DNA of 42,545 nucleotides from a virus (UHGV-0212520); one strand, 5' to 3'. Shown: positions 694 through 40,181, counted from the first letter of the stretch. Program-made: numbers and translations. Notes: generated by a model from the sequence alone, not told the origin.

Positions 694-722
694 ACTATAA
701 TAGCTAACTATTCAGGTGTCAA
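694..722 (-). promoter_or_regulatory. sigma70-like promoter, family A copy 1 (TTGACA-N17-TATAGT on minus strand)
   Basis: Minus strand reads TTGACA (717-722), 17-nt spacer cctgaatagttagctat, TATAGT (694-699); near-identical blocks at 3855-3884 and 39831-39859. Confidence 0.55.
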
Positions 723-955
723 CCCTTCCAGCCAGTTATTTTCTCAACTATAGTTAGGTATATGTTAGGCCACTCTAAATTCCACACCCATTTAATTTCC
801 TTCGTCTGGCCCAGTTGCTCGGGGTCTACCGTTTCATACTTAATCGCAACGTAGACCACGAGTGGAAGAAGGATAATTAGAAGCGGCACTAACATAGCCC
901 AGTAAGCAACAAATGCCACAAACCCACCAAATACCCTGAACGTTTTACGAATCAT
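719..955 (-). CDS. Small membrane protein (one strong TM helix)
   Basis: ATG at 955 overlaps the stop of the upstream exonuclease gene (ATGA), with GAGGAGGA as RBS; hydrophobic stretch FGGFVAFVAYWAMLVPLLIILLPLVVYVAI. Confidence 0.45.
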   Translation of the reverse strand: MIRKTFRVFGGFVAFVAYWAMLVPLLIILLPLVVYVAIKYETVDPEQLGQTKEIKWVWNLEWPNIYLTIVEKITGWKG

Positions 956-2217
956 TCCAAATCCTCCTCTGTTACCTGATTCCACTCAGGACGTTTGTCG
1001 TCTGCCGTTGCCACACATGGCGCACCCGGCTTACGGGTAATAAAGTCTTTCAGTTCTTCTTCCGGCACAACTTTAACAGCTTCGGTCGGCGTCATGAGCA
1101 CTTGCTTCATTAGTGCTATACCATACTTGCCAGCCACTTTCTCCGCGTCTTTCCACGCACGATTACCTGGGCGACCTTCAACCAGTTTGTACCCCGGAAC
1201 TTTCTTACCGGAATGCAGTGCAGATGTCATCGCTTTCTCAACCTTGTCGATGTGCTGGCGCAACAATGGCAACTTCTCATACTCAGTTACGAGTTGCTCC
1301 GGCGTCAGTTCCAGCACAAAGTCGTCTTCAAGTTCTTCCACCAGCACCGCGTTAACCGTCTTTGTACGCGATGCGCACTGTTCAGAGAACCTACACCACT
1401 GACAGCCATCGACCGACGGCTTGAAGTCCGACGCTTTCAGGTTCTTCTTACCGCGGAAATAGGCATCAAGGGCTAACAGTGCTCGTTTCTGCGCAAACTT
1501 AGCGAACAGTTCCAGACCTTCAACTGAGATGTCCCACTCCGACGCACCACCCGCGTAGGGCTGGAAGATAACCAGACGAACTGTTGTTATGTTATAACGT
1601 CTCTTAAGTCTGCGATAAACGCCGAGAGCGTAAAGCATAAGCTGCTTGTTTTCTTTCGCTTCGACACGATGTCGTCCCGTTTTCAGGTCACCGATAATTA
1701 GCATGTGCTCGTCGGTGTTAGCCAGCTCCTGTACGGCAACGAGGTCAGCCGTTCCGAACGTCTGTAGTTCTTCTTGCCGTCCGCCAGGGCTATTGATGTA
1801 CCCCGGATGCAATACCTCAGTAAGATTGACGCGCATCTCGATCTTGGCGTAAGTGGCTACATCGATAATCGCTTTGCAGTAGTCAGTGTACTTGCGAACC
1901 TGCTCAATCATGTCTGCCGTAATCAGTACCGCGCCTTTCATCGGACTTATTAGCGCCTTAATCTGGCCTTTACCCTCATCCAGCACGTAAGCACCGACTT
2001 CGCGCTCTAACGGCAACGCGGTGCCTTTGATGTACTGGTTTAGGTGCATCTCAGCTATTGTGTGCATTGCCGTACCTAATACGGCGGCTTTACCGGACGT
2101 GTTAGGGATATCTTTTTCACAGGCCAGTGATGCGGCGCAACTTAGCCACTTTTTAGCGCCTGACGGCGACAGTAAGGCGTGCACATCATTATTGCCGCCG
2201 CGTTCTTTTAAAATCAT
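952..2217 (-). CDS. PD-(D/E)xK exonuclease, Cas4/RecB-nuclease-like with Fe-S cysteine cluster
   Basis: 421 aa; N-terminal Cys (LSCAASLAC) plus C-terminal C-x2-C-x5-C (CQWCRFSEQC) typical of Cas4/AddB-type nucleases; GDLKTG candidate active-site segment; RBS GGAGAG; ends in TEEDLE. Confidence 0.7.
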   Translation of the reverse strand: MILKERGGNNDVHALLSPSGAKKWLSCAASLACEKDIPNTSGKAAVLGTAMHTIAEMHLNQYIKGTALPLEREVGAYVLDEGKGQIKALISPMKGAVLITADMIEQVRKYTDYCKAIIDVATYAKIEMRVNLTEVLHPGYINSPGGRQEELQTFGTADLVAVQELANTDEHMLIIGDLKTGRHRVEAKENKQLMLYALGVYRRLKRRYNITTVRLVIFQPYAGGASEWDISVEGLELFAKFAQKRALLALDAYFRGKKNLKASDFKPSVDGCQWCRFSEQCASRTKTVNAVLVEELEDDFVLELTPEQLVTEYEKLPLLRQHIDKVEKAMTSALHSGKKVPGYKLVEGRPGNRAWKDAEKVAGKYGIALMKQVLMTPTEAVKVVPEEELKDFITRKPGAPCVATADDKRPEWNQVTEEDLE

Positions 2218-2561
2218 CGTAAACTCTCCAAATACAAGTTTAATGCTTGTAACTGTTCTTCTGTAGGAATGAAAGAATCATCACGATGCAAGTCACTTAA
2301 CTGTTGCAGCATTCCGGCGAACTGACGTCTTGCGTCAACAGATTCCATGTGATGTTTTTCACTTTTATATACTAGTGTTTTCGGGTAATCATCAAGCCTG
2401 CCAGACGATTTATTCACTCTGAGAACCCGAGCTTCGTGTGCAATGTGGATATACTTTCTCCCGTTTTGTAGCACAGTAGCTACGCCACTGTTCTTTCTGC
2501 GGTCGCCGACGGTGTAAACCTTGTCACCGCTGCGCAAATTAAGCCACCATTTATCCGTCAT
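2214..2561 (-). CDS. Hypothetical protein
   Basis: ORF in operon with ATGA overlaps on both sides; start moved to ATG 2561 (RBS GGGAGA) from the track's upstream alternative start. Confidence 0.5.
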   Translation of the reverse strand: MTDKWWLNLRSGDKVYTVGDRRKNSGVATVLQNGRKYIHIAHEARVLRVNKSSGRLDDYPKTLVYKSEKHHMESVDARRQFAGMLQQLSDLHRDDSFIPTEEQLQALNLYLESLR

Positions 2562-2830
2562 ACCCTGTTCTCCCACTGGTCAATTAAATGACGAGTCTTA
2601 TGTTCGCAATGCATAGCCCAGCCATACATCGACTCGAAGACATAAAAGTCAGGTTTGGCGAAAGTCGTGCGCTTAATCTGCGACACATGGCGGCCTATAT
2701 CTTTAGGCCGTGGTACTTTGCCTAAGTACGCCATCTCTTCCATCTGGTGCGAACCGGACGGCGCTCGCAACAGCCATAGAGCCTCTGTGTTATCCCGCCT
2801 GTCTACGGCGCGGTAGAGTTGGTAAATCAT
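2558..2830 (-). CDS. Hypothetical protein
   Basis: 90 aa ORF, ATG with RBS AGGAGA, translationally coupled to neighbours. Confidence 0.5.
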   Translation of the reverse strand: MIYQLYRAVDRRDNTEALWLLRAPSGSHQMEEMAYLGKVPRPKDIGRHVSQIKRTTFAKPDFYVFESMYGWAMHCEHKTRHLIDQWENRV

Positions 2831-3114
2831 TTCTTTGTCTCCTGCATTTTAAGGAAGACAATCATAGCGGCGCGGAGAGGGTTTTCGTGCGTACTTTTGG
2901 TGAACGATGCCGAGTGATACGCCCTATACGTAAACGTATGTCGGTTAACCGTAACGCATTCAATTGATATGTGATTATCAATTATTACAGGCCATGCATC
3001 AGATGGGTTGTTGCAGTAGTCTTTGGCCTTAAACGAATTCAATCCTGAAATTTGCATAACCTCTGCGTGCACACGGCAGTTAATTTCAAAATCGCTCATA
3101 GCTTCGTATTTCAT
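2827..3114 (-). CDS. Hypothetical protein
   Basis: 95 aa ORF in minus-strand operon, overlapping stop/start with downstream gene. Confidence 0.5.
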   Translation of the reverse strand: MKYEAMSDFEINCRVHAEVMQISGLNSFKAKDYCNNPSDAWPVIIDNHISIECVTVNRHTFTYRAYHSASFTKSTHENPLRAAMIVFLKMQETKK

Positions 3115-3129
3115 ATTTCCGACCCTCAG

Positions 3130-3152
3130 TTAAAGCGGCCCGAAGGCCGCGG
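3130..3152 (-). other. GC hairpin (gcggcc-cgaa-ggccgc) between genes; possible attenuator or processing site
   Basis: Perfect 6-bp stem with a 4-nt loop at about 3133-3148; only a weak T-tract downstream on the minus strand. Confidence 0.3.
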
Positions 3153-3157
3153 GATAA

Positions 3158-3658
3158 TTATTCTTCTTCGAAATACTTGTTCTTGATTGCCGTAAGGCGT
3201 TCCAAGTACTCAGCAAGGTCTTCGTCTTTAATCGCGGCAATCTTCATCTTCTTGCCAGTGAACTCTTCCAGCAGTTCGTCAGAATCGTCGCATGCGGCGT
3301 CGCTAGGACCTTCGTTAATCGCGTCGTCGATGGCCTGAATCTGGTCACGAAGAGACTGGTAATCGACTTCTTCTTTCACTTCTTCCGGTTCTGGCGTTGG
3401 TTCCTCTACTTTAGCTTTACGCGGCTTGCGTTTCGGCTTCTCTTCTTCTGTCGGTTTAGTGTCGACGATGTCTTCACCTTCGACTGGGATTTCTTTTGTT
3501 TCTTCTTCTGCACATTTGGCTACCGCTTCTTTGGTATACACTACCGTCTCTATTTCCAGAGGCTCGGCAACCTGAACAACTTGTTTTGCACTATTCGCAG
3601 CAATCAGTTCGTGTGCAACTACGAAACGTTCCAGTAATTTTAAAAATTGTTCTAACAT
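3158..3658 (-). CDS. Highly acidic protein with short basic patch (function unknown)
   Basis: 166 aa, very E/D-rich (net charge strongly negative by eye) with internal KPKRKPRKAK; RBS AGGAGA. Confidence 0.55.
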   Translation of the reverse strand: MLEQFLKLLERFVVAHELIAANSAKQVVQVAEPLEIETVVYTKEAVAKCAEEETKEIPVEGEDIVDTKPTEEEKPKRKPRKAKVEEPTPEPEEVKEEVDYQSLRDQIQAIDDAINEGPSDAACDDSDELLEEFTGKKMKIAAIKDEDLAEYLERLTAIKNKYFEEE

Positions 3659-3673
3659 TTGTTTCTCTCCTGT

Positions 3674-3823
3674 TTATTTATACTTAACGGTTTTAACTAA
3701 CTGGCCTGTTGCTTTGTCGAAGAAGCCAACGCGATTGTTGCTTACTCGATATCGTGCGGTTTCTTTAGTCCCAAATGCGATATCAAGGCCTAACAAAATC
3801 TTTGCTTTGCGATTATTGGACAT
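3674..3823 (-). CDS. Small hypothetical protein (49 aa), first gene after promoter A2
   Basis: ATG at 3823 with strong RBS GAGAGGAGAGAAAC; not in ORF track (<60 aa); translation MSNNRKAKILLGLDIAFGTKETARYRVSNNRVGFFDKATGQLVKTVKYK. Confidence 0.35.
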   Translation of the reverse strand: MSNNRKAKILLGLDIAFGTKETARYRVSNNRVGFFDKATGQLVKTVKYK

Positions 3824-3854
3824 TTGTTTCTCTCCTCTCGTTTGGTATGGGCTA

Positions 3855-3884
3855 ACTATAATAGCTAACTATTCATTGTGTCAA
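3855..3884 (-). promoter_or_regulatory. sigma70-like promoter, family A copy 2 (TTGACA-N18-TATAGT)
   Basis: Plus-strand block aactataatagctaactattcattgtgtcaa is near-identical to the 691-722 block; divergent from the HTH gene at 3949. Confidence 0.5.
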
Positions 3885-3948
3885 TGGGCTTTTCTAAAAT
3901 AATTAATATGGTACTATTCACATATCAACTGACTAAGGAGTAACTGAC

Positions 3949-4164
3949 ATGCAACCATCTGAACTAGGCATCCGTGTAGAACAACGCCGAAAAGAACTCG
4001 GCATCTCCCAGCGCCGTCTGGCTGTCCTGGCCGGTGTTTCCCAGGGCGCGATTAATCAGCTGGCTCTCGGTGTAACTCAGGACGTCCGCCCGGCAACGCT
4101 GTTTAAACTGGCGGAAGTGCTGCAAGTAGACGCCAAGTGGCTGGCGTTTGGTGAAGGGGCTTAA
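3949..4164 (+). CDS. XRE/Cro-like helix-turn-helix transcriptional regulator
   Basis: 71 aa; HTH signature LGISQRRLAVLAGVSQGAINQLALG; RBS AAGGAG 8 nt upstream; lone plus-strand gene embedded in minus-strand early region, convergent with primase-helicase. Confidence 0.7.
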   Translation: MQPSELGIRVEQRRKELGISQRRLAVLAGVSQGAINQLALGVTQDVRPATLFKLAEVLQVDAKWLAFGEGA

Positions 4165-4180
4165 CGCCCCTTTCTTTTTA
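4153..4180 (+). terminator. Intrinsic terminator overlapping the stop codon of the HTH gene
   Basis: ggggc-ttaac-gcccc hairpin followed by tttcttttt. Confidence 0.5.
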
Positions 4181-4181
4181 C

Positions 4182-6449
4182 CTATTCCAAATCCTCCTCT
4201 GTCACCACCAGCATTTCATTCGGTTCGTATATTGTCTTCGGTATTTTGTTGTCCGTTATCCGGGTGTTCAGCCTGTAACGGCCCGGTATTATCTGATTGT
4301 TTTCGTCTGTTCCAGGTACAAGATACCCGGCCTCAACCATTTTCTTAATCTTCCCGCGTTCTATGGCTTCTTTGGAGTTAAACGCCTTCGCGTTGGGGTC
4401 AGACTGTGCCAGCTTATTCGCTGCGGCCACCGTGATACCTTCGTTGCCGTTGTAGGTTCCTTCCGCCAGTTCAAACGCTGCCAGTATCGTGGCTTCTGAA
4501 CTGTTGACGGCGTTCTCTACGGTTTTACGTACATTTTCTTTACCTTCCTTTGTCAGCCCTTCTTCGCGCTCTTTCTCCTCGTCAGTCTTGAACGGCTCGA
4601 AGCCCCACGGCATCAGCACAAGCGCCTTGTGCGGCTCAGGCAGGTCGAGGTTTACTATTGTGCCGTATTCCTCTGTGTTACCCAGGAACTCAACTGCACG
4701 GTACTCTTTCGGTGGCGGCGCTTCACGGAACTGTACCGACTCCAGCACCATGCCAACTGTCTTCTGTTGCGGCCCGTGCTTAAATTTCGAGTGGTATACG
4801 TTTATCTGTCTGTCGGTAGCGCGTTCGATTGTCAGTTCCACGTCGACGCCCGCGTACAGCGCCCCACTACCGCGGGCTTTCTTTCCACCTTTAGGTGTGT
4901 GGTGGACAACGCCTACCGCAGCTTTAGTTGCATCACGCACTTCTTTCAGGATGGCGATAACTTTACCCATGCCGATTGCCGTTGATGAGCTGTTCTCGTC
5001 GAACTTATCAATCGTCAGAGCCAGGGTCTGGTTGAGGGTGTCGAACGCAACCATCCCAATCGGCTCGTCGCCAGCAGTTTCACGCATTATCTTAATCAGG
5101 CTTTTCAGTTTTCCGACTTCACCCATATCGATGACGTGTACATAATCTTTACCCTCAACGCCGTATTTAGCCGCGAGTGCATCGATACGTGTACGTGTGG
5201 CTGCGCCACCCTCGCCGTCGATATAGAAATGGTGGCAACGCTGGGTGTCAGCCCCCGCAAACCGGTATCCGGTGGCGCTGAGGTACATCATCCCCAGCGT
5301 ATAGAACGATTTGTACGTGCCAGATTCCCCGACGATATCCCAGATACAATCCGACGGCATGTACCCTTCTACGACGAAATCAGCCTTTACCGGGTCCGGC
5401 AGCTCGTCCTCCTCTGAGTCATCCTCGTCTTCCAGGTCGTCCAGGCTGCATGAAACAGATTCACGCGCGCCCCAGCCAATAGCCTCCGCGACTTCACTGA
5501 ACGGCAGACCAGTCGCATCGCACGCGTACTTCCACACCTCTTTCGGTGCCATGCCTTCGGTCGCCGTAATGTCGGTGTCGTGAATCATGGTTACGTTCGG
5601 CGCTTCGTAGCCTTCGCGCGGGAAGCACAGCAGGAAGTCGTCCGGGCGCGGTGTCGGGTCGCTGTAGTTCTCTGCATGTTCCGGTGTAGCTGGCATCTTC
5701 AGACCGCGGGGTGTCATGACGCCGCCGTACTCAAACGCCAGTGCCTCGAACGCGTCTGTAAACGCGGTGCGCAGTTCTTCCGGTATCTGGTAATCCGATG
5801 CGCTGCTCACCTCGTAATCCGGGGCGCCTTCCAGTAATTCGTCCGGGTCAATCAGGTCGTTGCGGCGCGACCAGATAACAGTAGAGCCTACCGGCGGCAG
5901 GTACATCGGTTGCGAAAGGGTGAAACCGCTGCGGTCGGCACCCATGCCTTTGAAGAAGTGCTCAAGCAAGCCATGACGAACACGGATGACGTCACCACCT
6001 TCGACTGGGCGGGCCAGCGGCATGACGACACGGAACCGCGGCGACTCATCGTTATGTGATGCCGTGGTGTAGAGGCACATAGCCCGTCGGCTGCGCTTAA
6101 CCAGGCACACCGCTTCCTGATACTCTTCCGGCGTTGCACTGTCGAAGTCAAGATACGCTAGTGACGATTTGCTTACAGACGCGTCACAGCGGTAAAAGAA
6201 GCCTTTACGCGCCCGCTTAAGGTCCCCGGTTTCCGGGTCTTTTACGGTGCTGTGCGTAGAGTCGCACGCAGCGGTGATATACCCCGGCGCGGTCTTAGGG
6301 TTAATCCCGCCACGGACAGCATCAAGCGGCTGGATTAACTCTTTCAGGTCGTCCAGTGTTGCTGTGTGTGTGGTTCTGACGTTTATATCCTTTTTCTCTG
6401 CCCGCGCGTTGCGACGAGACCACGAGTAGGATAAAATTACATCGGACAT
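4182..6449 (-). CDS. Putative replicative primase-helicase (C-terminal RecA-fold/RepA-like ATPase)
   Basis: 755 aa; C-terminal region GESGTYKSF ... VVHHTPKGGKKARGSGALYAGVDVELTIER resembles RepA/DnaB-like ATPase helicases; N-terminal domain unassigned; RBS GAAGGA; ends in TEEDLE. Confidence 0.6.
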   Translation of the reverse strand: MSDVILSYSWSRRNARAEKKDINVRTTHTATLDDLKELIQPLDAVRGGINPKTAPGYITAACDSTHSTVKDPETGDLKRARKGFFYRCDASVSKSSLAYLDFDSATPEEYQEAVCLVKRSRRAMCLYTTASHNDESPRFRVVMPLARPVEGGDVIRVRHGLLEHFFKGMGADRSGFTLSQPMYLPPVGSTVIWSRRNDLIDPDELLEGAPDYEVSSASDYQIPEELRTAFTDAFEALAFEYGGVMTPRGLKMPATPEHAENYSDPTPRPDDFLLCFPREGYEAPNVTMIHDTDITATEGMAPKEVWKYACDATGLPFSEVAEAIGWGARESVSCSLDDLEDEDDSEEDELPDPVKADFVVEGYMPSDCIWDIVGESGTYKSFYTLGMMYLSATGYRFAGADTQRCHHFYIDGEGGAATRTRIDALAAKYGVEGKDYVHVIDMGEVGKLKSLIKIMRETAGDEPIGMVAFDTLNQTLALTIDKFDENSSSTAIGMGKVIAILKEVRDATKAAVGVVHHTPKGGKKARGSGALYAGVDVELTIERATDRQINVYHSKFKHGPQQKTVGMVLESVQFREAPPPKEYRAVEFLGNTEEYGTIVNLDLPEPHKALVLMPWGFEPFKTDEEKEREEGLTKEGKENVRKTVENAVNSSEATILAAFELAEGTYNGNEGITVAAANKLAQSDPNAKAFNSKEAIERGKIKKMVEAGYLVPGTDENNQIIPGRYRLNTRITDNKIPKTIYEPNEMLVVTEEDLE

Positions 6450-6506: not shown

Positions 6507-6740
6507 TTATTCCAGGTCTTCTAAAGTAGCGGTCATTCCGCGAACTTCTGCAACGGCACTATATTTCCCACCAACATTTTTCACGACACCGGACTTAACC
6601 AGCACCTTCAACGACCCTTCAATAATGGCGGAACTATAGTACTTAAAATAACTACGGCGCAAGTCGATAACGCTGCACGACCCTTTTTTACGTGTTAACG
6701 AAACTACTGCCGTGAATACCCGTGACTGGAACTCGGTCAT
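6507..6740 (-). CDS. Hypothetical protein ending in TATLEDLE
   Basis: 77 aa ORF; ATG overlaps the stop of the upstream AlpA-like gene (ATGA); C-terminal LEDLE tail resembles the EEDLE tails of exonuclease and primase-helicase. Confidence 0.5.
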   Translation of the reverse strand: MTEFQSRVFTAVVSLTRKKGSCSVIDLRRSYFKYYSSAIIEGSLKVLVKSGVVKNVGGKYSAVAEVRGMTATLEDLE

Positions 6741-6907
6741 TTTACATTCTCCTTAATCCACGCTTCCACTTTCTCCGGGTCAAACGTACCTGGTTGCCGG
6801 CGGCCCATAATGCGAATACAACAATCCGGGAACTTCCCACTCTTTAACCAGTTATTCAGCGTGCGACGAGTAACCCCGATACGCTCAGCTACCTCATTCT
6901 GTGTCAT
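6737..6907 (-). CDS. AlpA/Xis-like small HTH DNA-binding protein
   Basis: 56 aa; MTQNEVAERIGVTRRTLNNWLKSGKFP matches the AlpA-type HTH pattern; RBS AAGGAG; not in ORF track (<60 aa). Confidence 0.5.
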   Translation of the reverse strand: MTQNEVAERIGVTRRTLNNWLKSGKFPDCCIRIMGRRQPGTFDPEKVEAWIKENVK

Positions 6908-7107: not shown

Positions 7108-7394
7108 ACATAATCGCACCTATTGACATTATGAAAATCTTCGTTTAAGGTGCTTCTATATCTTAGTTACTTTGATTCCTGTTCACCTTGTAATACCCGC
7201 TTGAAACGCAGCTGCGCCAAAGCGCAAGCGAAGTGTTAAGCGGCAGATTACTGAACATATGAATTATAGTAACTTTCCTTCCTTAGTATCTCCGGTTGCC
7301 CTGGGCAAGCTCTATTCTCATCGGCAGCATATCTCTTAAGTATCTGATTTTCTTAAAGTGCCGTAGATTCGCAACCGTAAAAATGTAACGATTA

Positions 7395-7425
7395 TTGGGC
7401 AGGCCTTAAGGCCTGCCCTTTAGTT
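7395..7425 (+). terminator. Strong hairpin (gggcaggcc-ttaa-ggcctgccc) with downstream T-tract inside the large intergenic region
   Basis: 9-bp perfect stem at 7397-7418 followed by tttagtt; no annotated upstream plus-strand gene. Confidence 0.4.
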
Positions 7426-7490: not shown

Positions 7491-7519
7491 TTGCACACCC
7501 CAACATAATAGGATACTAT
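7491..7519 (+). promoter_or_regulatory. sigma70-like promoter, family B copy 1 (TTGCAC-N17-TACTAT)
   Basis: TTGCAC 7491-7496, spacer accccaacataatagga, TACTAT 7514-7519; spacer and flank conserved with 8821-8849 and the minus-strand copies at 19594-19622 and 28174-28202. Confidence 0.5.
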
Positions 7520-7553
7520 TCGCTTATCGGAACGAGACAGAGGAGCGAGGGTT

Positions 7554-8481: not shown

Positions 8482-8482
8482 C

Positions 8483-8518
8483 AGGTGGTGTAATAGGTGG
8501 TGTAATAGGTGGTGTAAT
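8483..8518. repeat. Three perfect tandem copies of the 12-mer AGGTGGTGTAAT
   Basis: aggtggtgtaat repeated at 8483-8494, 8495-8506, 8507-8518, followed by a partial copy aggccaatagg. Confidence 0.85.
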
Positions 8519-8550
8519 AGGCCAATAGGTTACTATTTGGCTTTGTGTCT

Positions 8551-8585
8551 TACGCTGCTACACAGCAGCGTATCATTTTTCTCAT
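8551..8585 (+). terminator. Hairpin (acgctgc-tacaca-gcagcgt) followed by T-rich tract; possible terminator
   Basis: 7-bp stem at about 8552-8571 then atcatttttctcattttt. Confidence 0.35.
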
Positions 8586-8820: not shown

Positions 8821-8849
8821 TTGCACAGTAAGATAGAATAGGCTACTAT
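8821..8849 (+). promoter_or_regulatory. sigma70-like promoter, family B copy 2 (TTGCAC-N17-TACTAT)
   Basis: TTGCAC 8821-8826, spacer agtaagatagaataggc, TACTAT 8844-8849. Confidence 0.5.
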
Positions 8850-8879
8850 TCATTTACACAAACGAGAGGAGAGACAGAG

Positions 8880-11980: not shown

Positions 11981-12001
11981 TCTATTTTCTGCAATGACTA
12001 G

Positions 12002-12030
12002 TTGACTATTACCTTAGACCCTATTATATT
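12002..12030 (+). promoter_or_regulatory. sigma70-like promoter (TTGACT-N17-TATATT)
   Basis: TTGACT 12002-12007, 17-nt spacer, TATATT 12025-12030; precedes the gene at 12065. Confidence 0.45.
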
Positions 12031-19542: not shown

Positions 19543-19593
19543 TTTAAATATTCCCGATTTGATGGATTAAACATGTTGTGTGTGTTGAAATGA

Positions 19594-19622
19594 ATAGTAC
19601 CCTATTGTATTGGTGTCTGCAA
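19594..19622 (-). promoter_or_regulatory. sigma70-like promoter, family B copy 3 (TTGCAG-N17-TACTAT on minus strand)
   Basis: Reverse complement: TTGCAG acaccaatacaataggg TACTAT tcattt; near-identical to 28174-28202. Confidence 0.5.
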
Positions 19623-19674: not shown

Positions 19675-19690
19675 AACTATTCGAATAGTT
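19675..19690. promoter_or_regulatory. Perfect 16-bp palindrome AACTATTCGAATAGTT overlapping the -35 of the 19689 promoter
   Basis: aactattcgaatagtt reads identically on both strands; contains the ACTATTC motif found at the family B -10 regions. Confidence 0.5.
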
Positions 19691-19717
19691 GACTTTTCAC
19701 TAAAAATGTGCTAAGCT
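19689..19717 (+). promoter_or_regulatory. sigma70-like promoter with extended -10 (TTGACT-N17-TGcTAAGCT)
   Basis: TTGACT 19689-19694, 17-nt spacer ending in TGc, TAAGCT 19712-19717. Confidence 0.4.
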
Positions 19718-19724
19718 CCACCTG

Positions 19725-19895
19725 AGCTTGTGAAGTATGAACAAGCGACCGCGGCGCGGGCAGGTAACGGAGCGGGACGTAAGTCCTGAGTGTAGTTACG
19801 CTGACGCGTTCGGAAGGGCCATACTCTATTGCTTGTGTAAAAAGTAACAGGTTTACTGAGATTACGCCGTTTCTATGTTTAAATGATAAGGCCTA
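19725..19895 (+). ncRNA. Candidate small RNA or structured leader between promoter 19689 and terminator 19896
   Basis: About 170-200 nt transcribed interval with no ORF that has an RBS (only a 36-codon ATG ORF at 19737-19847 without SD); GC-rich internal inverted repeats (gcttgt/acaagc, ccgcg/cgcgg). Confidence 0.25.
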
Positions 19896-19922
19896 GCGCC
19901 CCGCTTTAAGGCGGGGCTTTAC
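19896..19922 (+). terminator. Intrinsic terminator-like hairpin upstream of the spanin genes
   Basis: gccccgc-tttaag-gcggggc followed by tttactt. Confidence 0.5.
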
Positions 19923-19942: not shown

Positions 19943-20332
19943 ATGAATCTTAAAGCAACTGTCGTAGCGGGAGCGTGTTTCATCATCCTGGCCCACGCAC
20001 ACGGCGTCTACCAGTACCGCATCGGCTGGAACGAAGGCCGGGCGAATCTCGTTTCGCAGCAACAGCAGAAAGCACAGGCTGAGTTCGCGAAGAAAACACA
20101 ACGGCAGCAGCAGGATGAATCAAAGGCCGCAGCCGCTGACAACGAAGGTAAGACGAAATCAGAGGTGATTACCCGTGAAGTCGTTAAGTACATTAAAACG
20201 CCTGGTCGCAGCGTGTGCACTTTTGACCCTGAGCGCGTGCAGCTCAAGTCCCGCGCCGTCGTCAACGCCAATTCCATCCCCGGATACGATGATGATGCAG
20301 CCGCCGTGCAAACTGGCAGCGCCAAGCAGTGA
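19943..20332 (+). CDS. Rz: i-spanin (Rz-like)
   Basis: 129 aa; N-terminal TM segment, Q/E-rich coiled-coil middle, RBS AGGGGGA; lipoprotein gene in +1 frame within its 3' half. Confidence 0.65.
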   Translation: MNLKATVVAGACFIILAHAHGVYQYRIGWNEGRANLVSQQQQKAQAEFAKKTQRQQQDESKAAAADNEGKTKSEVITREVVKYIKTPGRSVCTFDPERVQLKSRAVVNANSIPGYDDDAAAVQTGSAKQ

Positions 20333-26556: not shown

Positions 26557-26787
26557 TCACTCATCAATGTTACTTCGATACTCCCGTAACTTCTCCAGAC
26601 TTTCAATCGCTTCCGCTAAGTCTGTTCCGGTGTCCTTGTGTCCGCGCAAGCCCATGCACAATAACTTCTTCAATGCGTGCTGTAACGCCGGGTCGCGGAT
26701 GTCGAAGGCGCGGAGCACATCATAAACGTCTACTGTCATAGTGCTGCCGTGGATGTTCGTCATTGTGCGGTTGTATTTTGAAGTCAT
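26557..26787 (-). CDS. Hypothetical protein in moron operon
   Basis: 76 aa; ATG overlaps stop of upstream phosphoesterase gene (ATGA). Confidence 0.5.
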   Translation of the reverse strand: MTSKYNRTMTNIHGSTMTVDVYDVLRAFDIRDPALQHALKKLLCMGLRGHKDTGTDLAEAIESLEKLREYRSNIDE

Positions 26788-27914
26788 CCCAGCATCTCCG
26801 GTGAAATAGTTAAACGTGCGACTTCGCCATATTCGGCGCTATAAGTAATTACATTTGCGCTACGGCCAGACATCCACCCACCGCGGGAAGCATATGCATC
26901 TTTCGCCGCGAGAGTGCGATGTTGTTCCACTACCATATTCCTACTTTCTACAATCTTTTGATGGTGGAGATGCCCGACATGTGCGTAACTGTACTCGCTT
27001 TCGCCAAATGCTTTTCTGAACTTAGCTATCATAATGGGTTCGACCACCTCAAACCGGCATTTATGCCCGTGCGTAAAGAACAGCGTCGTTTTGCCGTGCT
27101 GGACCATCTTGTAAACATCCGGCGACGTATCGACGAACACACGCGGCTCATTGTCATACAGCGTACTGAACATCTCAGCCAACCAAATCATGCCACTCTC
27201 GTCGTGATTTCCTTGCACGATAAGCAAGCGAACATTTTTGTGTTTAACCAGCGCCATATCAACAACACGGCGGACCATACGAATCATGTAGCGGACCAGT
27301 TTCTGATAGCGTGTGTCTGCGTCCAACACATGGCGCGACTCAGGGGTAACGGCATCCAGACTATCGAAGTGCGCGAAGTCACCTAACAGGTTAATAACTC
27401 CTGTCCCTGCATCCGGTGCTTTCTGAAACGCTGCATCGAACCAGCGAGAGAACAGGTCTTCCGCGATTTTCATATCCCAGTCGTCGCCGCTCTCGTCGGC
27501 CCAGGCCAGCATGCCAAGATGAAAATCAGATACCGTGTAAAGATTGAGTAGTTTATCATCGCGTTTAGCGCGGGCAGCTTTAACAGGCGCAACTGGCGTA
27601 ATCTCCGACTTCATGCCCTCGATTACGGCTTTCATCAACTCGACCTGACGTTCGGCGTCGGTGTCAGTCTTAACCCATTGCAGTTTAGTATTGCCAAACT
27701 CGTCCACCAGCGACGATGTACCTTTAATCTTGTAGCCGTCTGGTACAAGGTGGCTGACGTCACGTCCGTGGCCTACGCCTTTCTTAGCCAGCTTCGCTTT
27801 ACGGATGCGAATAACGCGGTCTGAGATGCCGTATTTACGGGCGATGTCGATATTCTTCACACCGGCGTTCAATTCTTCCTGCAACTGTTCGTCGGTTATT
27901 TTCTTCCGGGCCAT
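26784..27914 (-). CDS. N-terminal HTH domain fused to calcineurin-like metallophosphoesterase (SbcD/Mre11-like motif set)
   Basis: 376 aa; N-terminal ITDEQLQEELNAGVKNIDIARKYGISDRVIRIRKAKL (HTH); then SDFHLG (DxH), LLGDFAHFD (GDxxD-like), VQGNHDE (GNHD/E), FTHGHK, HVGHLHH (GHxH); RBS GAGGAA. Confidence 0.6.
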   Translation of the reverse strand: MARKKITDEQLQEELNAGVKNIDIARKYGISDRVIRIRKAKLAKKGVGHGRDVSHLVPDGYKIKGTSSLVDEFGNTKLQWVKTDTDAERQVELMKAVIEGMKSEITPVAPVKAARAKRDDKLLNLYTVSDFHLGMLAWADESGDDWDMKIAEDLFSRWFDAAFQKAPDAGTGVINLLGDFAHFDSLDAVTPESRHVLDADTRYQKLVRYMIRMVRRVVDMALVKHKNVRLLIVQGNHDESGMIWLAEMFSTLYDNEPRVFVDTSPDVYKMVQHGKTTLFFTHGHKCRFEVVEPIMIAKFRKAFGESEYSYAHVGHLHHQKIVESRNMVVEQHRTLAAKDAYASRGGWMSGRSANVITYSAEYGEVARLTISPEMLG

Positions 27915-27951: not shown

Positions 27952-28143
27952 TCACTTCTCTTTAACATTCGAGTTGCAAGCCCAGATTAAAATAAATAAC
28001 CACGGCAACAGAACCCAGCCAAGAAACAGATTAGCCATGAATATCGCTAATTTCGCTTTATGGTTGCGGAAGTACGCAACCAGGAAAGGTGTGAAATAGG
28101 CGAGAAGTGCAAACAGAATTAAGGAAACCGGTAAACTGGACAT
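27952..28143 (-). CDS. Superinfection immunity protein (T4 Imm-like small membrane protein)
   Basis: YFTPFLVAYFRNHKAKLAIFMANLFLGWVLLPWLFILIWA matches the Imm_superinfect pattern (YFLPSI..F.R.H.N..AIF.LNL.LGWT..GW..ALIWA) from memory; start set to ATG 28143 (RBS AAGGGG); first gene after promoter B4. Confidence 0.6.
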   Translation of the reverse strand: MSSLPVSLILFALLAYFTPFLVAYFRNHKAKLAIFMANLFLGWVLLPWLFILIWACNSNVKEK

Positions 28144-28173
28144 TTTAAACCCCTTCATTGTTGGTGTAAGTGA

Positions 28174-28202
28174 ATAGTACCCTATTATATTGGGGTGCGC
28201 AA
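28174..28202 (-). promoter_or_regulatory. sigma70-like promoter, family B copy 4 (TTGCGC-N17-TACTAT on minus strand)
   Basis: Reverse complement: TTGCGC accccaatataataggg TACTAT tcactt; drives the imm/phosphoesterase operon. Confidence 0.55.
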
Positions 28203-35289: not shown

Positions 35290-37527
35290 ATGTCAAGCGG
35301 ATGCGGTGACGTTTTAAGCCTGGCGGATTTACAAACCGCCAAGAAACACCAGATTTTTGAAGCTGAGGTTATTACAGGGCGCCAGGGTGGGGTGGCTAGT
35401 GGTGATTTCATTGACTATGCCACTAATCAGGTTACTGGTCAGACGCAGAAGACGTTACCCGCAATACTGCGAGATGCGGGTTTTAGACCTGCCAATTTTA
35501 CATTTCAAACTGGCGGAACGTTAGCCGTTAATGACGCAGATAAAGTTGTTTTGTGGCCGGAGTCTGGCGGTGGCGACGGGATGTATTATATTTGGCGCGG
35601 CACTCTTCCTAAGGTTATACCGGCGGGGTCATCACCCGAATCAACAGGTGGCGTCTCTTCGTCTGCGTGGGAGCCTTTTGCTAAAGAGGCCGATAATATT
35701 CCGGCTCAGGTAGGATATAACAACGGCCTGGTATATCCTACGACTTATGCGGACTCTATCGACATAGGGGATACCATACCGACAGGGACACGATTCATCC
35801 GGGTCAACGGCAACATGTTTATGACCGCAACGGCGCTAACAGCGCCTATTGTGGTGTCGTCATTTGACTCTACGGTTATTAATGGGTCGACCGAACTTTT
35901 TCCTTTGGCGTTCTATAATGAGGTTAATTCTGGGTGGAAAGTTGCACAGAACGATGCTCAGCTCAGTAGATTATTACCGTTAGCGGGTAATATCGCTATC
36001 TCCTACAGTCCTGTACAAGTTGAGGGTATATTCACCATTCAGGGAGATATTCACCTTAAACCATTATTACCAAAAGTGACAGTAGATTCTCGCCAGTTCT
36101 GGCTGCGTTCACCGAGAACATGGAACGAAACAAATCAGGAATATGACTATACGCCGTATGACTATACGCCGTATGACATCCGCATTGTCGGCAACTTCCT
36201 GTTCGATTTCTACCGACAGGATGCGTCATTTGACCCTGGGGTTGGGCTAGCTATGCAATCAGCTGGCACTCTTGAGCTTTCAGGGTGTGAATTGCAGGGG
36301 GCATGGAATAGCAACGTAACGATGGATTATGGAAGATGGGTTCTTGCCGATAATCTGTACTCACATGATTGTGGTCGTGGGAAAATTCAAGATCCAGATG
36401 GCAGCAACCGCACTGGCATGGCTATCATTGTTAATGACCCTACAGAGGCGCACGTCCATCATATCCGTTGCAGAAACACTTGGGCCTCATCTTTGTTCTT
36501 CTCATCACACCGGCCAAACCGTACTCTTAATCTTATGATTCACGATGTGAGCATTAATACCTCTGGCGGTAACGGTTTGCGTGTTCAATCAGACGACCTT
36601 GTGAACGGAAGCGGGGAAGGGACAGCTATTACAAGAGTTAACATAAACGCCGCCACAATCAAAAACTGTGAAAGCCACGGGCTTCGTGGGAATTTCCGTA
36701 ATGGAGTAGTTACTGGACTATATGTAGAAAGTTCGAATGCAGGTGTCGCAATTGAAGGAGCTAGTGACGTATCCTACGATAACGTTGTTATTCGTAACTG
36801 CTCGCAGGGTTTGTTATGCCGCTTCTATCCGGTAGAAAACACAAGGATGCGTTTTTCTAACTTCTTGATATCAGGTTGCTCTGCTGAAGCTGTTTATTTT
36901 TTGAGAAACTCAGCCAATACCACGACTAATCTTGCCGACATCGAGTTTGACGGCATTACGATACACGCACTTGCAAATGGTGCAAAAGGGTTTGTTTTCA
37001 ACGGTGGGCCTGCTGCGGTGCCAACCACAGATTTAACATTAAAAAATGTTCGCATAGTAGGCGCTTACCCTAACACAGAAAATGGGCATTATATCGTCAT
37101 CATTAACTGCCGCCACATAGAGGTTGATAATGTGAACTTGAGGGGGTGCAATGGAAGCGCAGAATCTTATTTACAAGCACTAGCCACACAGAGTGTTATT
37201 GTTAACAGGCTGGTAGCTGTGCAACCATTCGGGACAGTTAACAGGCCAATATATACAAATGGTAGTGGTTCTGACGCTATAGTGAACATTACGAACTGTG
37301 TGGCCCCTGACACAACCACAGGTAGTATTGGGTACAACCCTGTACCAACAAAACGTTATGAGGCTAACAACCAGTTTGCCAATAGCGAAAACCCGCAACA
37401 GTTTCCGTTCACTAACGCGGCAACACGTCGCGGGGGAGATGTAAACACGCTAACAACCGCACAACTAGCAAACATAGTTGCAACTTTGATAAATGATATT
37501 AGTCTAGGGAAGTTTGTAGTCAGATAG
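35290..37527 (+). CDS. Tailspike/tail fibre with predicted right-handed beta-helix (likely polysaccharide depolymerase)
   Basis: 745 aa; repeated short motifs NCSQG, NCESHG, GCSAE, INCRH, RGCNGS and many N/G/T/V-rich repeats; last structural gene. Confidence 0.6.
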   Translation: MSSGCGDVLSLADLQTAKKHQIFEAEVITGRQGGVASGDFIDYATNQVTGQTQKTLPAILRDAGFRPANFTFQTGGTLAVNDADKVVLWPESGGGDGMYYIWRGTLPKVIPAGSSPESTGGVSSSAWEPFAKEADNIPAQVGYNNGLVYPTTYADSIDIGDTIPTGTRFIRVNGNMFMTATALTAPIVVSSFDSTVINGSTELFPLAFYNEVNSGWKVAQNDAQLSRLLPLAGNIAISYSPVQVEGIFTIQGDIHLKPLLPKVTVDSRQFWLRSPRTWNETNQEYDYTPYDYTPYDIRIVGNFLFDFYRQDASFDPGVGLAMQSAGTLELSGCELQGAWNSNVTMDYGRWVLADNLYSHDCGRGKIQDPDGSNRTGMAIIVNDPTEAHVHHIRCRNTWASSLFFSSHRPNRTLNLMIHDVSINTSGGNGLRVQSDDLVNGSGEGTAITRVNINAATIKNCESHGLRGNFRNGVVTGLYVESSNAGVAIEGASDVSYDNVVIRNCSQGLLCRFYPVENTRMRFSNFLISGCSAEAVYFLRNSANTTTNLADIEFDGITIHALANGAKGFVFNGGPAAVPTTDLTLKNVRIVGAYPNTENGHYIVIINCRHIEVDNVNLRGCNGSAESYLQALATQSVIVNRLVAVQPFGTVNRPIYTNGSGSDAIVNITNCVAPDTTTGSIGYNPVPTKRYEANNQFANSENPQQFPFTNAATRRGGDVNTLTTAQLANIVATLINDISLGKFVVR
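36142..36177 (+). repeat. In-frame 15-bp tandem duplication (2.4 copies) inside the tailspike gene
   Basis: tatgactatacgccg at 36142-36156 and 36157-36171, then tatgac; encodes YDYTPYDYTPYD. Confidence 0.85.
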
Positions 37528-37529
37528 CC

Positions 37530-37560
37530 AACAAGGCCCCAAAACGGGGCCTTTTCTCTA
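37530..37560. terminator. Bidirectional intrinsic terminator (AAGGCCCC-N5-GGGGCCTT family)
   Basis: caaggccccaaaacggggccttttctc. Confidence 0.65.
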
Positions 37561-37695
37561 CTCTTCGGATAACTTCTCCAGTACAAACGCCAGTTGCGCA
37601 TTAGCGGCATCTCTCTGTTGTCGTAGTCGTAGAACCTCTTCCTCGAGTTCCTTGATACGTTTTTGCAATGCTGGGATCGGGGCTATGATGTTCAT
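37558..37695 (-). CDS. Small coiled-coil protein (45 aa)
   Basis: ATG 37695 overlapping helicase stop; MNIIAPIPALQKRIKELEEEVLRLRQQRDAANAQLAFVLEKLSEE; not in track (<60 aa). Confidence 0.35.
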   Translation of the reverse strand: MNIIAPIPALQKRIKELEEEVLRLRQQRDAANAQLAFVLEKLSEE

Positions 37696-39116
37696 TTCTT
37701 ACCTCGTCTCTTCATGTAATTAAGCAACTCTTCCTGTACCGATTTCTTCTCGTCAGTGCGCGCGGCAACAACCTCGTCCAGCGTGTCTTTAGCGACGATG
37801 TGATAGAGGAACACCGGGCGCTCGTGCCCTGCCTGTTTCTGGCGGACCGGGCCTATACGCTCAACGACCTGCAAATAGTGCTCAAGGTTCCACCCTTGCG
37901 AAATAAACGCCAGATGGTGCCCGCCGTCCTGTAAATTCAAACCATGCCCGGCTGACGCAGGGTGCACGCACAAGATTTCGATTTCACCTCGGTTCCACGC
38001 TTCCATCTGCTTATTACCCTTCGCACCTTTTGCAAACGCCTGTGCTTGTGGGAATCGCTTAAGGATGCGCTCAAGTTCGTGCTTAAACTGGTAGGCCACT
38101 AACAGTGGCGCGCCCTGCAACTCCTCGACAATGGACTCCAGCGCATCCAGTTTCGTGTCGTGTACTTTCTCCCAGTCTTTCGTTGCTTCTCCGTCCGGCC
38201 CTGATACATACACGGCACCAGATGCGATCTGCAAGCACTTAGATGTTTTCGCCGCAGCGTTAGCTGCTTCAACTTCTCCGCTCTCCAGTTCCGCGAATAA
38301 CTTCTCCTCCATATCGATGTACGCCTGGCGCGCTTTCTTCGGCAGGTCTATTTCAACCGGTACGATAGTCGGCGCTTCACAACCGAACCACTCGGCAGCG
38401 TCAATTGTGAGACTGATGTCCTTCATCCTCTGATGAATCTCATTATCCGCGCCTGGGCGCACCCGATACCTTCGCGCCATCGCCGATTTGCCCTCCTGTA
38501 CCGAGTTAAACCAGCGGTCGGTGAATGCTGTGTATGAAGAACCCAGGCGCTCGCCAGCGTCGATAAACCAGTTCTGACCCCACAAGTCTTTGAGTCCGTT
38601 TGGTGACGGCGTACCAGTCAGGTTAATGAACCGCTTAACCTTACCGAACGCCACTTTACTAAGCGCCTTTGCTCGCTTGCTGCCTCCAGAACGGCTGCGG
38701 AATGATTTTAGTTTCGTGCTTTCATCGGCAACGATAACGGTAAAAGGCCAGTCGTCTTTGCCGTAGTAGTCAATCAGCCACTCGATAACTTCGTAGTTAG
38801 TGCACACCACGTTAGCATCAGACTCCAGGGCCGCGATGCGGCGCTTCTCTGAACCGGTTGCGTCTACGACACGCAGACAAGGAAATTGCCATTTCTCTTG
38901 TTCTGCGGGCCATGTACCTGATGCAACGCGCAACGGGGCGAGAATTAACACGCGGTCGTCGTCCGTAAGTTGGCCGTTGCGGAACAGCCGGTTTAATGCC
39001 CACATTGTCGACGAGGTCTTGCCGCCGCCCATACCGCACCAGATATTGCAACGTGGGTGCTGTAGCATAAACGACGTCATTATTTTCTGATATTCCCTGC
39101 GCCTAAACTTACTCAT
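37692..39116 (-). CDS. SNF2/DEAD-like superfamily 2 DNA helicase
   Basis: 474 aa; motif I CGMGGGKTSST, motif II VIVADESTKLK, C-terminal helicase region HPASAGHGLNLQ...QVVERIGPVRQ. Confidence 0.65.
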   Translation of the reverse strand: MSKFRRREYQKIMTSFMLQHPRCNIWCGMGGGKTSSTMWALNRLFRNGQLTDDDRVLILAPLRVASGTWPAEQEKWQFPCLRVVDATGSEKRRIAALESDANVVCTNYEVIEWLIDYYGKDDWPFTVIVADESTKLKSFRSRSGGSKRAKALSKVAFGKVKRFINLTGTPSPNGLKDLWGQNWFIDAGERLGSSYTAFTDRWFNSVQEGKSAMARRYRVRPGADNEIHQRMKDISLTIDAAEWFGCEAPTIVPVEIDLPKKARQAYIDMEEKLFAELESGEVEAANAAAKTSKCLQIASGAVYVSGPDGEATKDWEKVHDTKLDALESIVEELQGAPLLVAYQFKHELERILKRFPQAQAFAKGAKGNKQMEAWNRGEIEILCVHPASAGHGLNLQDGGHHLAFISQGWNLEHYLQVVERIGPVRQKQAGHERPVFLYHIVAKDTLDEVVAARTDEKKSVQEELLNYMKRRGKK

Positions 39117-39610
39117 GCCTTGAACTCCCCGAAGTATATTTCTGCGGCTCTTTGGTATACGCGCGACGCTTCTTCTATAGTGTCAAAATAGCCAAGGTGG
39201 ATGTATATGTTATTGACGCCTATTCTGGCGCGCCACCTGCCCGATGGTATTTGGTAAACCCCTATCGCGCCGCTGGTGTTATGCGAGGTGCAGTCGCGGT
39301 TCTGAATCTGCTGGCTCCTTGTTGCGGGCCTTATATTATTTATGGCGTTATTGGCCCTGTTACGGTCTTTATGGTCAAGCTCACCATTGTGATATTCCCC
39401 GTAGACGAAAGCCCATGCCAGATGGTGGGCTTTTATTCTTACACCGGAGACTGTAATAACTATGTATCCTTTGTCGTTTGGCCCTCCGGCTACCTCCCCA
39501 GCATTTCTCCCTTTTATGCTTACTTTTCGTGTAAATATACCTGTTTCGGGGTCATAGTTAAGAAGACGTTTCGCCTCCTCAATATCGGGTCTTCTATTGA
39601 ATTTACTCAT
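39113..39610 (-). CDS. HNH homing endonuclease with AP2 DNA-binding domain
   Basis: 165 aa; HHLAWAFVYGEYHNGELDHKDRNRANNAINNIRPATRSQQ (HNH_3-like) followed by IGVYQIPSGRWRARIG...GYFDTIEEASRVYQRAAEIYFGEF (AP2-like). Confidence 0.7.
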   Translation of the reverse strand: MSKFNRRPDIEEAKRLLNYDPETGIFTRKVSIKGRNAGEVAGGPNDKGYIVITVSGVRIKAHHLAWAFVYGEYHNGELDHKDRNRANNAINNIRPATRSQQIQNRDCTSHNTSGAIGVYQIPSGRWRARIGVNNIYIHLGYFDTIEEASRVYQRAAEIYFGEFKA

Positions 39611-39798
39611 TTCAGCACCAGAACTAACTCTTTACGCCCGAACGCCGTAACGTTGCCTGTTACATCTTCAATAACTAGCTTACCGTTCGACTCGACGAAC
39701 ACCGTATCAACGGCAACAGGTCGGCGTGTCTTAACGTTGAAAATAATGTCGCCAGGTACGATGTCACGTGCTGGTTTGCGGTCATATTCGTATTTCAT
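39607..39798 (-). CDS. Hypothetical protein
   Basis: 63 aa; RBS AAGGAA; first gene after promoter A3. Confidence 0.45.
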   Translation of the reverse strand: MKYEYDRKPARDIVPGDIIFNVKTRRPVAVDTVFVESNGKLVIEDVTGNVTAFGRKELVLVLK

Positions 39799-39809
39799 TT
39801 CTCAATTCC

Positions 39810-40181
39810 TTATATTGTTGGTGTATGGCTACTATAATAGTTCGCTATTAGGCCGTCAACCTGTTTAAACGACCCAACGACAAAAACATTCGCGCCGCGT
39901 TTACGCATCCGCTCGTGCTCACGTAACTGGTGCGTGTCTGGCTTCGTGTTTTCGTCTTTCTTAACCTCAACGAACCAGACGATGCCGCCTGGGAGAAGTA
40001 CCAGCAGGTCGGGAGCGCCGGAACGCCCCTCGTACGACAATTTGCGTACGAGGCCCCCCAGGGCCTCGAATCGCTCTTTTGCGTATTTCTGAATCTTGCC
40101 CTCAGGCGTACTCATCCACACACCCCTCACGTTTCGTATGCGCAATCCCGCAGCGCGGACAGATTCGGCAGTCTTCTCCAT
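39810..40181 (-). CDS. VRR-NUC domain nuclease (PD-(D/E)xK fold)
   Basis: 123 aa; GAPDLLVLLPGGIVWFVEVKK matches the D...E-x-K core of VRR-NUC proteins. Confidence 0.55.
   Translation of the reverse strand: MEKTAESVRAAGLRIRNVRGVWMSTPEGKIQKYAKERFEALGGLVRKLSYEGRSGAPDLLVLLPGGIVWFVEVKKDENTKPDTHQLREHERMRKRGANVFVVGSFKQVDGLIANYYSSHTPTI
39831..39859 (-). promoter_or_regulatory. sigma70-like promoter, family A copy 3 (TTGACG-N17-TATAGT on minus strand)
   Basis: Reverse complement: TTGACG gcctaatagcgaactat TATAGT; embedded in the 3' end of the VRR-NUC gene. Confidence 0.5.

Follow-up and report, generated by a model that had tools for sequence, protein, structure and literature searches.

The 42,545-nucleotide (nt) DNA of virus UHGV-0212520, the whole of which we call the window, carries three near-identical promoter-like blocks, here named P1, P2 and P3, that face minus-strand replication and recombination genes and share a conserved spacer. 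We found that the shared spacer is a 14-base-pair (bp) palindrome, AATAG-N4-CTATT (the dyad), that dyads sit at almost every recognisable promoter of the genome, and that a gene divergent from P2 encodes a 71-amino-acid (aa) helix-turn-helix (HTH) protein resembling the Cro protein of phage 434. The reading we favour is that the dyads are operators for this Cro-like protein, which would probably repress the early and replication promoters through them.

By megablast the window is ~88-90% identical to Escherichia phages BUCT825, CR01 and HSE2 and to Shigella phage phiSD1, and it is of the Kagunavirus type, within the Guernseyvirinae, a group of small virulent siphoviruses. Across the window ends, the open reading frame (ORF) of the single-stranded DNA-binding protein (SSB; 13-639) is separated from that of DNA polymerase I (40318-42498) by 59 nt. 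Since this equals the SSB-PolA gap of phiSD1, the window comprises an entire genome, cut between the SSB and polymerase genes.

Three near-consensus promoters and a recurrent dyad

The original prediction had put three look-alike blocks of the form TTGACR-N17/18-TATAGT on the minus strand, and all three lie exactly where it placed them (Table 1). The window has no other match to this form, and the wider pattern TTGACR-N15-19-TATAGT likewise gives three matches where 0.02 are expected, a count reached in none of 100 shuffles. With hexamers near TTGACA/TATAAT and spacers of 17, 18 and 17 nt, P1, P2 and P3 score 11, 11 and 10 of 12 in a generic sigma-70 scan and are the top three matches of the window, two further sites also scoring 10. 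Start codons follow 26-55 nt past the -10 on the same strand. We predict that all three are near-consensus promoters of the sigma-70 type.

Of 29 positions, P1 shares 26 with P2 and 22 with P3; all seven differences between P1 and P3 fall outside the hexamers and the two 5-bp arms of the dyad. Two of the blocks had been described as embedded in the 3′ ends of upstream genes. This holds for P3: the VRR-NUC gene encodes 123 aa, with family homology as far as residue 118-120, and P3 occupies its codons ~108-117. The overlap of P1, in contrast, is limited to the stop codon of an 88-aa ORF that has a GTG start and no family match. We also considered promoter elements on the opposite strand of the three blocks, where ACTATAATAG contains TATAAT, and rejected them, as no -35 is found at a usable distance and they would mean antisense transcription at P1 and P3.

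The spacer was described as conserved, and it is, though what is conserved is the dyad rather than a generic spacer, and it is not confined to P1-P3. The genome holds eight exact copies of AATAG-N4-CTATT against 0.02 expected, and this is its commonest 5-N4-5 word pair. Another three dyads have one mismatch each, and all three are at promoters. Every promoter with a dyad faces a gene start in the correct orientation, and the only good promoter matches that lack one are a divergent pair, 7107(-) and 7123(+).

Table 1. Promoters, dyads and associated genes of the window, numbered from its first nucleotide.
Feature	Position	Strand	Promoter elements and dyad	Genes and remarks
P1, class 1	694-722	minus	-35 TTGACA 722-717; spacer CCTGAATAGTTAGCTAT, 17 nt; dyad AATAGTTAGCTATT 712-699; -10 TATAGT 699-694	SSB gene 13-639, then DNA polymerase I and VRR-NUC across the window junction
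P2, class 1	3855-3884	minus	-35 TTGACA 3884-3879; spacer CAATGAATAGTTAGCTAT, 18 nt; dyad 3873-3860; -10 TATAGT 3860-3855	49-aa ORF through to exonuclease; divergent from HTH gene
P3, class 1	39831-39859	minus	-35 TTGACG 39859-39854; spacer GCCTAATAGCGAACTAT, 17 nt; dyad AATAGCGAACTATT 39849-39836; -10 TATAGT 39836-39831	63-aa ORF, HNH/AP2 endonuclease, SNF2 helicase; lies within the 3′ end of the VRR-NUC gene
HTH-gene promoter, class 2	3889-3918	plus	weak -35 CTTTTC; -10 TACTAT 3912-3917; one-mismatch dyad AATATGGTACTATT 3905-3918	71-aa HTH_3 protein
71-aa HTH_3 protein gene	3949-4164	plus		Candidate operator-binding Cro-like repressor; monocistronic; terminator 4153-4173
56-aa HTH_17 (excisionase-like) protein gene	6740-6907	minus		Rival candidate reader; expressed from dyad-free promoter 7107-7079
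Class-2 promoter	7491-7520	plus	TTGCAC-N17-TACTAT; dyad AATAGGATACTATT 7507-7520 over -10	Small early-type ORFs from 7554
Orphan exact dyad	8524-8537	plus	AATAGGTTACTATT; no recognisable -35	After three 12-bp repeats, before terminator hairpin 8551-8572
Class-2 promoter	8821-8850	plus	TTGCAC-N17-TACTAT; dyad 8837-8850 over -10	ORF from 8881
Class-3 promoter	11997-12030	plus	TTGACT-N17-TATATT; -35 inside one-mismatch dyad ACTAGTTGACTATT 11997-12010	
Class-2 promoter	19593-19622	minus	TTGCAG-N17-TACTAT; dyad 19606-19593	Small minus-strand ORF in late region
Class-3 promoter	19684-19717	plus	TTGACT-N17-TAAGCT; -35 inside one-mismatch dyad AATAGTTGACTTTT 19684-19697	
Class-2 promoter	28173-28202	minus	TTGCGC-N17-TACTAT; dyad 28186-28173	68-aa superinfection-immunity-family gene, 376-aa metallophosphoesterase
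Array part after P2		minus		49-aa ORF; 166-aa, 95-aa (NinX), 90-aa and 120-aa (ProQ-C-like) ORFs; PD-(D/E)XK exonuclease; 88-aa ORF
Array part after P1		minus		Enc34-type SSB, DNA polymerase I, VRR-NUC (runs across the window ends)
Array part after P3		minus		63-aa ORF, HNH/AP2 endonuclease, SNF2 helicase

The dyads occupy three registers. In class 1 (P1-P3), TTGACR is followed by 4-5 nt and then by the dyad, whose final T is the first T of TATAGT and whose centre is near -18.5. In class 2, typified by TTGCRC-N17-TACTAT and comprising 7491+, 8821+, 19622-, 28202- and the HTH-gene promoter, the dyad lies over the -10 with its centre near -12.5. In class 3, the -35 TTGACT of two plus-strand promoters (12002 and 19689) falls within a one-mismatch dyad centred at about -33. 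The last two of the four central bases are always TA in class 2 because they begin the -10 TACTAT, whereas the centre is free in class 1 (TTAG, TTCG, CGAA, TTCA, TTGG and others). Occurrence at three offsets from the -35 and -10 argues that the dyad is not a promoter part read by sigma-70. At promoters it overlaps the core elements, as operators of the 434 and P22 type do: in P1-P3 it lies in the spacer, at five promoters it covers the -10, and at two it covers the -35.

Conservation of the dyad across relatives

We followed the promoters in 38 IMG/VR loci found via the HTH protein, locating them by anchoring on the downstream genes. Frames were defined by TTGNNN and ATAKT only, so the test of arm conservation is not biased towards the arms. 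Entropy per position is 0.00-0.05 bit in the arms, as in the hexamers, versus 0.44-0.56 bit in the centre, and the 4-5 nt beside the -35 vary freely. Outer arms that are conserved around a centre that varies, within ~14 bp, again match the layout of a 434- or P22-type operator. P1 is conserved in all 35 Kagunavirus loci, 33 of them with perfect arms; perfect arms are found at P2 in 39 of 39 loci and at P3 in 25 of the 27 whose frame lies at most 140 nt from the 63-aa gene. The HTH-gene promoter is conserved across 38 unique relatives, and the mismatch of the 11997 dyad is kept in relatives. In one locus (L031, IMGVR_UViG_3300010278_000001) the equivalents of P1 and P3 both read ACTAG for AATAG, AATAG is retained at P2, and the HTH protein has 99% identity; the shared change points to either gene conversion between the promoters or parallel weakening of two operators.

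Beyond Kagunavirus, the orthologous promoters of the Salmonella phage S100 (Jerseyvirus) carry (T)AATAG-N4-CTATT(A). In Hafnia phage TS33 and in two further phages of Salmonella, Cornellvirus PhiSTP1 and vB_STM-ZS, the -35 and TATAGT are retained but the arms are altered (ATTAG-N4-GTATT, AATAC-N4-CTAAT, ATTAC-N4-CTAAT and similar), leaving AWTA-N6-TAWT as the core of the dyad across the family. Since Jersey and Cornell phages carry different arms on the same Salmonella host, and E. coli Kagunavirus carries the Jersey arms, the motif follows the phage lineage and not the host. Concerted alteration of the arms at several promoters within a single phage, under an unchanged host polymerase, is the signature of a phage-encoded reader. 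These comparisons suggest that the dyad is a protein-binding site rather than part of the promoter proper.

The same data bear on two explanations in which no phage protein reads the dyad. A host DNA-binding protein is a most improbable reader: the dyad is AT-rich and lies within promoters, as such a site might, yet nothing about it is specific for a host protein, the arms differ between Jersey and Cornell phages of Salmonella and agree between Jersey phages and Kagunavirus of E. coli, and we know of no E. coli regulator consensus that matches it. Alternatively, no trans-acting factor is needed at all if one promoter cassette was copied by recombination and kept for equal strength, the palindrome being incidental (for example, two -10-like halves). 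The close match of P1 and P2 within the window would fit such copying, as would the likeness of the leaders past several promoters and the change of A to C common to P1 and P3 in L031, which resembles gene conversion. However, the dyad recurs with different -35 and -10 elements in three registers, its centre and the proximal spacer drift while the arms do not, and Cornell-type arms change in concert although the host RNA polymerase is the same as for Jerseyvirus, all of which makes this explanation very unlikely. The original prediction had offered recognition by a phage factor or selection for identical strength as the cause of the conserved spacer, and had proposed a motif search across the genome and in related phages. 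That search found the dyad at other promoters and conserved in relatives, and the comparative evidence favours a phage factor as the predicted reader, whereas selection for identical strength is argued against by a dyad present at nearly all promoters in three registers.

Temperate relatives were sought with the full class-1 cassette in 185,579 bacterial species genomes, and the single match was a mis-binned Kagunavirus contig. This 4.3-kb contig (JAEWLW010000055.1), assigned to a 'Bacillota bacterium' metagenome-assembled genome, is 73-90% identical to positions 37981-41880 of the window and is a Kagunavirus-like phage fragment carrying the polymerase, VRR-NUC, P3 and the SNF2 helicase.

A 434-Cro-like protein as the candidate reader

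The 71-aa protein belongs to Pfam family HTH_3 (1.2e-12). Its top sequence match in the PDB is 434 Cro, also of 71 aa, which aligns with it end to end (E 4.9e-7). A single-sequence AlphaFold2 model has five helices and a pLDDT of 84, and its best fold matches include 2cro and 3cro, both 434 Cro, with TM 0.72-0.79 and 38-41% identity. 434 Cro binds as a dimer to 14-bp operators of the form ACAA-N6-TTGT, and the cro gene of a lambdoid Klebsiella phage, whose product is 45% identical to the 71-aa protein, adjoins cI and ACAA-N6-TTGT dyads. The glutamine aligned with Gln28 of 434 Cro, which we take to read A at operator position 1, is invariant, and position 1 of the dyad is A in all lineages. The residue that follows is Gln in 434-type proteins and small (G/S/A) in every Guernseyvirinae protein examined.

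The position of the gene is in keeping with such a role. It is divergent from P2 and has dyads upstream at 3860-3873 and 3905-3918, the latter a weakened dyad on its own weak promoter, as expected of the cognate regulator gene in 434 and P22; this layout would be the usual autoregulatory arrangement. Furthermore, the 71-aa HTH protein is the sole regulator found in all three genera (Kagunavirus, Jerseyvirus and Cornellvirus).

Several observations weigh against assigning the dyads to this protein. The Kaguna and Jersey HTH_3 proteins are 52% identical and have different recognition helices (SQGAINQ and SQSLITH) with an identical dyad, while the Jersey and Cornell helices are more alike with dyads that differ, so protein and operator show no clean covariation; across Kaguna, Jersey, Cornell and TS33 the only regularity is the invariant Gln with a small residue after it, as opposed to Gln-Gln in 434-type proteins. 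The Cornell arms are imperfectly symmetric, and the extended motif is slightly asymmetric, having a TG flank on one side and AT on the other, with an orientation that is inverted between class 1 and class 2. A repressor that closed nearly all promoters of a virulent phage would also call for a separate account, not given by the sequence, of late-gene transcription. The RNA-seq of K1B4, the only one for the group, has bulk time points from 5 to 120 min, places 42 of 57 genes in the 'middle' category and is too coarse to use, and we found no mapped transcription start site, footprint or regulator study for any Guernseyvirinae phage in the literature. The most distant locus of the HTH search (40% identity) was considered as a further sample for covariation and set aside, as it is an unrelated phage in which the HTH is part of a 123-aa protein in another context.

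A last point of this kind concerns the 56-aa HTH_17 protein, the foremost of the other phage proteins that might read the dyad. The HTH_17 proteins of Kagunavirus and Jerseyvirus, the two genera with the exact dyad in common, are 87.5% identical; none is detectable in Cornellvirus or ZS, where the dyad differs, and all 443 records fall within Kagunavirus and Jerseyvirus. In the K1B4 RNA-seq, an HTH gene is one of the four early genes. Yet Cornell-type phages and TS33 have a related dyad at the same promoter positions without any HTH_17, the family (PHROG 66, excisionase/TerS-like) does not typically provide dimeric readers of 14-bp palindromes, the protein itself has no solved relative, and its gene adjoins no dyad. 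We think it unlikely that HTH_17 or another phage protein takes the place of the Cro-like protein here.

The motif itself is already published and is not new. In fBC-Eco01 it was found with PHIRE as seven 'phage RNAP promoters' with the consensus tgAATAGTa-ccTATTat-T (PMC9825357), and VB_EcoS-Golestan likewise has seven PHIRE promoters (PMC7203180). The published sites PP1-PP7 are mainly the class-2 dyads together with the HTH-promoter dyad, which is PP5 in the fBC-Eco01 supplement (PMC9825357). Both papers credit a phage-encoded RNA polymerase with recognising the motif (PMC9825357, PMC7203180) and mention neither its dyad symmetry, nor its placement in several registers of sigma-70 promoters, nor the adjacent Cro-like gene. 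The annotations of four related genomes, one of them PHROG- and structure-based, list no phage RNA polymerase or sigma factor, and none was found among 26 of the window's ORFs, the ones scanned against Pfam and PHROG. With no RNA polymerase in the annotated relatives or the scanned ORFs, the published attribution must be wrong.

What these annotations imply could still hold in another form, namely that a factor bound to the dyad activates or re-specifies transcription and thereby defines a phage-specific promoter class. The class-2 hexamers are poor (TTGCRC, TACTAT) and might need help, seven sites in fBC-Eco01 are published as 'phage promoters', and the polarity of the extended motif could serve such a factor, although this polarity is opposite in class 1 and class 2 while both face their genes correctly. 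P1-P3, on the other hand, need no activator because their near-perfect sigma-70 hexamers are optimally spaced, and a protein centred at -18.5, -12.5 or about -33 would take up space that RNA polymerase needs. Activators of the MerR type act on promoters with 19-20-bp spacers, where they untwist the DNA. A dyad between the -35 and -10 is common to MerR-family operators and P1-P3, but here the spacers are 17-18 bp and the hexamers consensus-like. An activating role is, in our judgement, a poor prospect.

The closest likeness is to the Cro/cI operators of phage 434 (and P22). Both systems have a 71-aa HTH_3 protein of the same fold and a 14-bp dyad of conserved outer bases and variable centre, the dyads overlap the core promoter, and the gene of the known or, here, candidate regulator diverges from an operator-bearing promoter and has a weaker dyad on its own. 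The arms differ, being ACAA in 434 and AATA(G) here. In addition, there is no cI partner, OR1-OR3 triplet, integrase or lysogeny module in the window or in annotated relatives, so nothing here constitutes a lysis-lysogeny switch, and the group is regarded as virulent; single operators are dispersed at about 11 promoters instead of being clustered at one switch. Dispersal of this kind recalls the C1 operators of phage P1 and the gp71 stoperators of mycobacteriophage L5, where one regulator has many scattered sites, many of them overlapping replication or early promoters. In those phages, monomers read asymmetric sites that maintain lysogeny, whereas here the sites are dyads, lysogeny genes are lacking and no chromosomal prophage copies were found. 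As repressor-operator control, the proposed circuit is ordinary in kind.

If the Cro-like protein is the reader, infection could proceed as follows. Upon entry, host RNA polymerase would fire the strong class-1 and the weaker class-2 promoters. The Cro-like protein would then accumulate and occupy the perfect dyads first and the imperfect ones later, each bound dimer sterically excluding RNA polymerase, so that early and replication transcription would be shut down. At higher concentration it would limit its own synthesis through the weakened dyad of its promoter, and the one-mismatch sites on promoters towards the packaging and head genes would close last. A broader and more tentative idea, which we would not yet bet on, is that, of a 434-type immunity region, the strictly virulent Kaguna-, Jersey- and Cornellviruses retained just the Cro half and spread its operator over almost every sigma-70 promoter in three registers and graded quality, perfect at early and replication promoters but imperfect at the repressor's own promoter and at those leading into late genes, making the repressor a clock for the lytic programme with 7107- and 7123+ as the sole unregulated entry points.

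Transcription units, leaders and significance

The minus-strand replication and recombination genes form a single long co-directional array of roughly 10 kb that reads leftward (Table 1). A hairpin at ~37535-37556, which in the sequence has T-runs on either side, likely ends this array. We saw no convincing minus-strand terminator between the three array units, and P1 and P3 would therefore be internal, additive promoters. An 84-aa ORF at 37356-37610 (-) crosses the bidirectional terminator into the 3′ end of the tailspike gene, has no family match and is probably not a gene. The three blocks had been said to all read toward replication genes, and P1-P3 do face replication and recombination genes of the minus strand, but one of the four replication units uses another promoter. 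This is the helicase-primase unit (7052 to 4182, minus strand), made up of a 52-aa ORF, HTH_17, a 77-aa ORF and the helicase-primase, and its promoter, TTGATT-N17-TATACT at 7107-7079 (-), is free of dyads.

Among the remaining dyad sites, the promoter at 28202(-) precedes a gene at 27952-28158 (-) of the T4-Imm-like superinfection immunity family (PF14373, 2e-12) and the metallophosphoesterase gene at 26784-27914 (-). A promoter predicted to drive these genes on the opposite strand inside the late region fits an early/middle regulon. The site at 19593-19622 has an orthologue in Jerseyvirus S100, located upstream of a methyltransferase gene. In the region 8482-8572, which also holds the orphan dyad at 8524 and its terminator hairpin, three tandem 12-bp repeats, GGTGGTGTAATA, lie directly upstream of the dyad, each with an AATAGG half-site; they are probably not extra operators because relatives have AACAGG in place of AATAGG.

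The other dyad-free promoter, at 7123(+), is a near-consensus TTGACA-N17-TAAGGT followed by ~270 nt without an ORF and by a strong terminator at 7397-7418. The region 7123-7424 folds far better as RNA than its shuffles (z = -5.67), and among 13 related sequences eight predicted pairs, most of them at a long hairpin's tip, have changed in both partners with pairing preserved. It is conserved in Jerseyvirus S100 and has no match in Rfam at gathering thresholds. Lying beside the helicase-primase operon, it is a candidate for a structured non-coding RNA or for an origin or primer transcript. A second such region, 19689-19922 (+), begins at a class-3 promoter and has ~200 nt without a convincing ORF before a terminator at 19898-19917. 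Its beginning is nearly identical in Jerseyvirus S100, its folding gives a z of only -2.44, and the stretch could be another small RNA or else a long leader of the gene at 19943.

The leaders of the dyad-bearing promoters also have features of their own. Several of those past 3855, 7519, 8849, 28174 and 39831 resemble one another: the leaders of P2, 7491+ and 8821+ have extended Shine-Dalgarno regions of a common CAAACGAGAGGAGAGA type, and those of P3 and 28202- have ACACCAACAAT in common. Past P1, the SSB leader contains a 5-bp GC hairpin, CCGGG-N6-CCCGG, at ~660-676 (-), which is kept in Jersey, ZS and TS33 and reads CCTGG...CCAGG in Cornellvirus PhiSTP1, one compensatory change from G-C to U-A. 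By analogy with T4 gp32, this hairpin may be a translational operator of SSB. The array part after P2 includes a protein like the C-terminal part of ProQ, encoded at 2214-2576.

Phages of Kagunavirus and Jerseyvirus are widely isolated for use in therapy and biocontrol, and they are also proposed as small chassis in synthetic biology. Their genome papers label the motif described here as the promoter of a phage RNA polymerase that does not exist. The main value of this work is that it corrects a published mis-annotation in a much-used group of phages, and it opens no new question in kind. Should the Cro-like protein prove to be the reader, the group would gain a testable regulatory map of about 11 promoters, one candidate regulator and two dyad-free promoters, along with a set of strong, repressible and compact promoter-operator cassettes.

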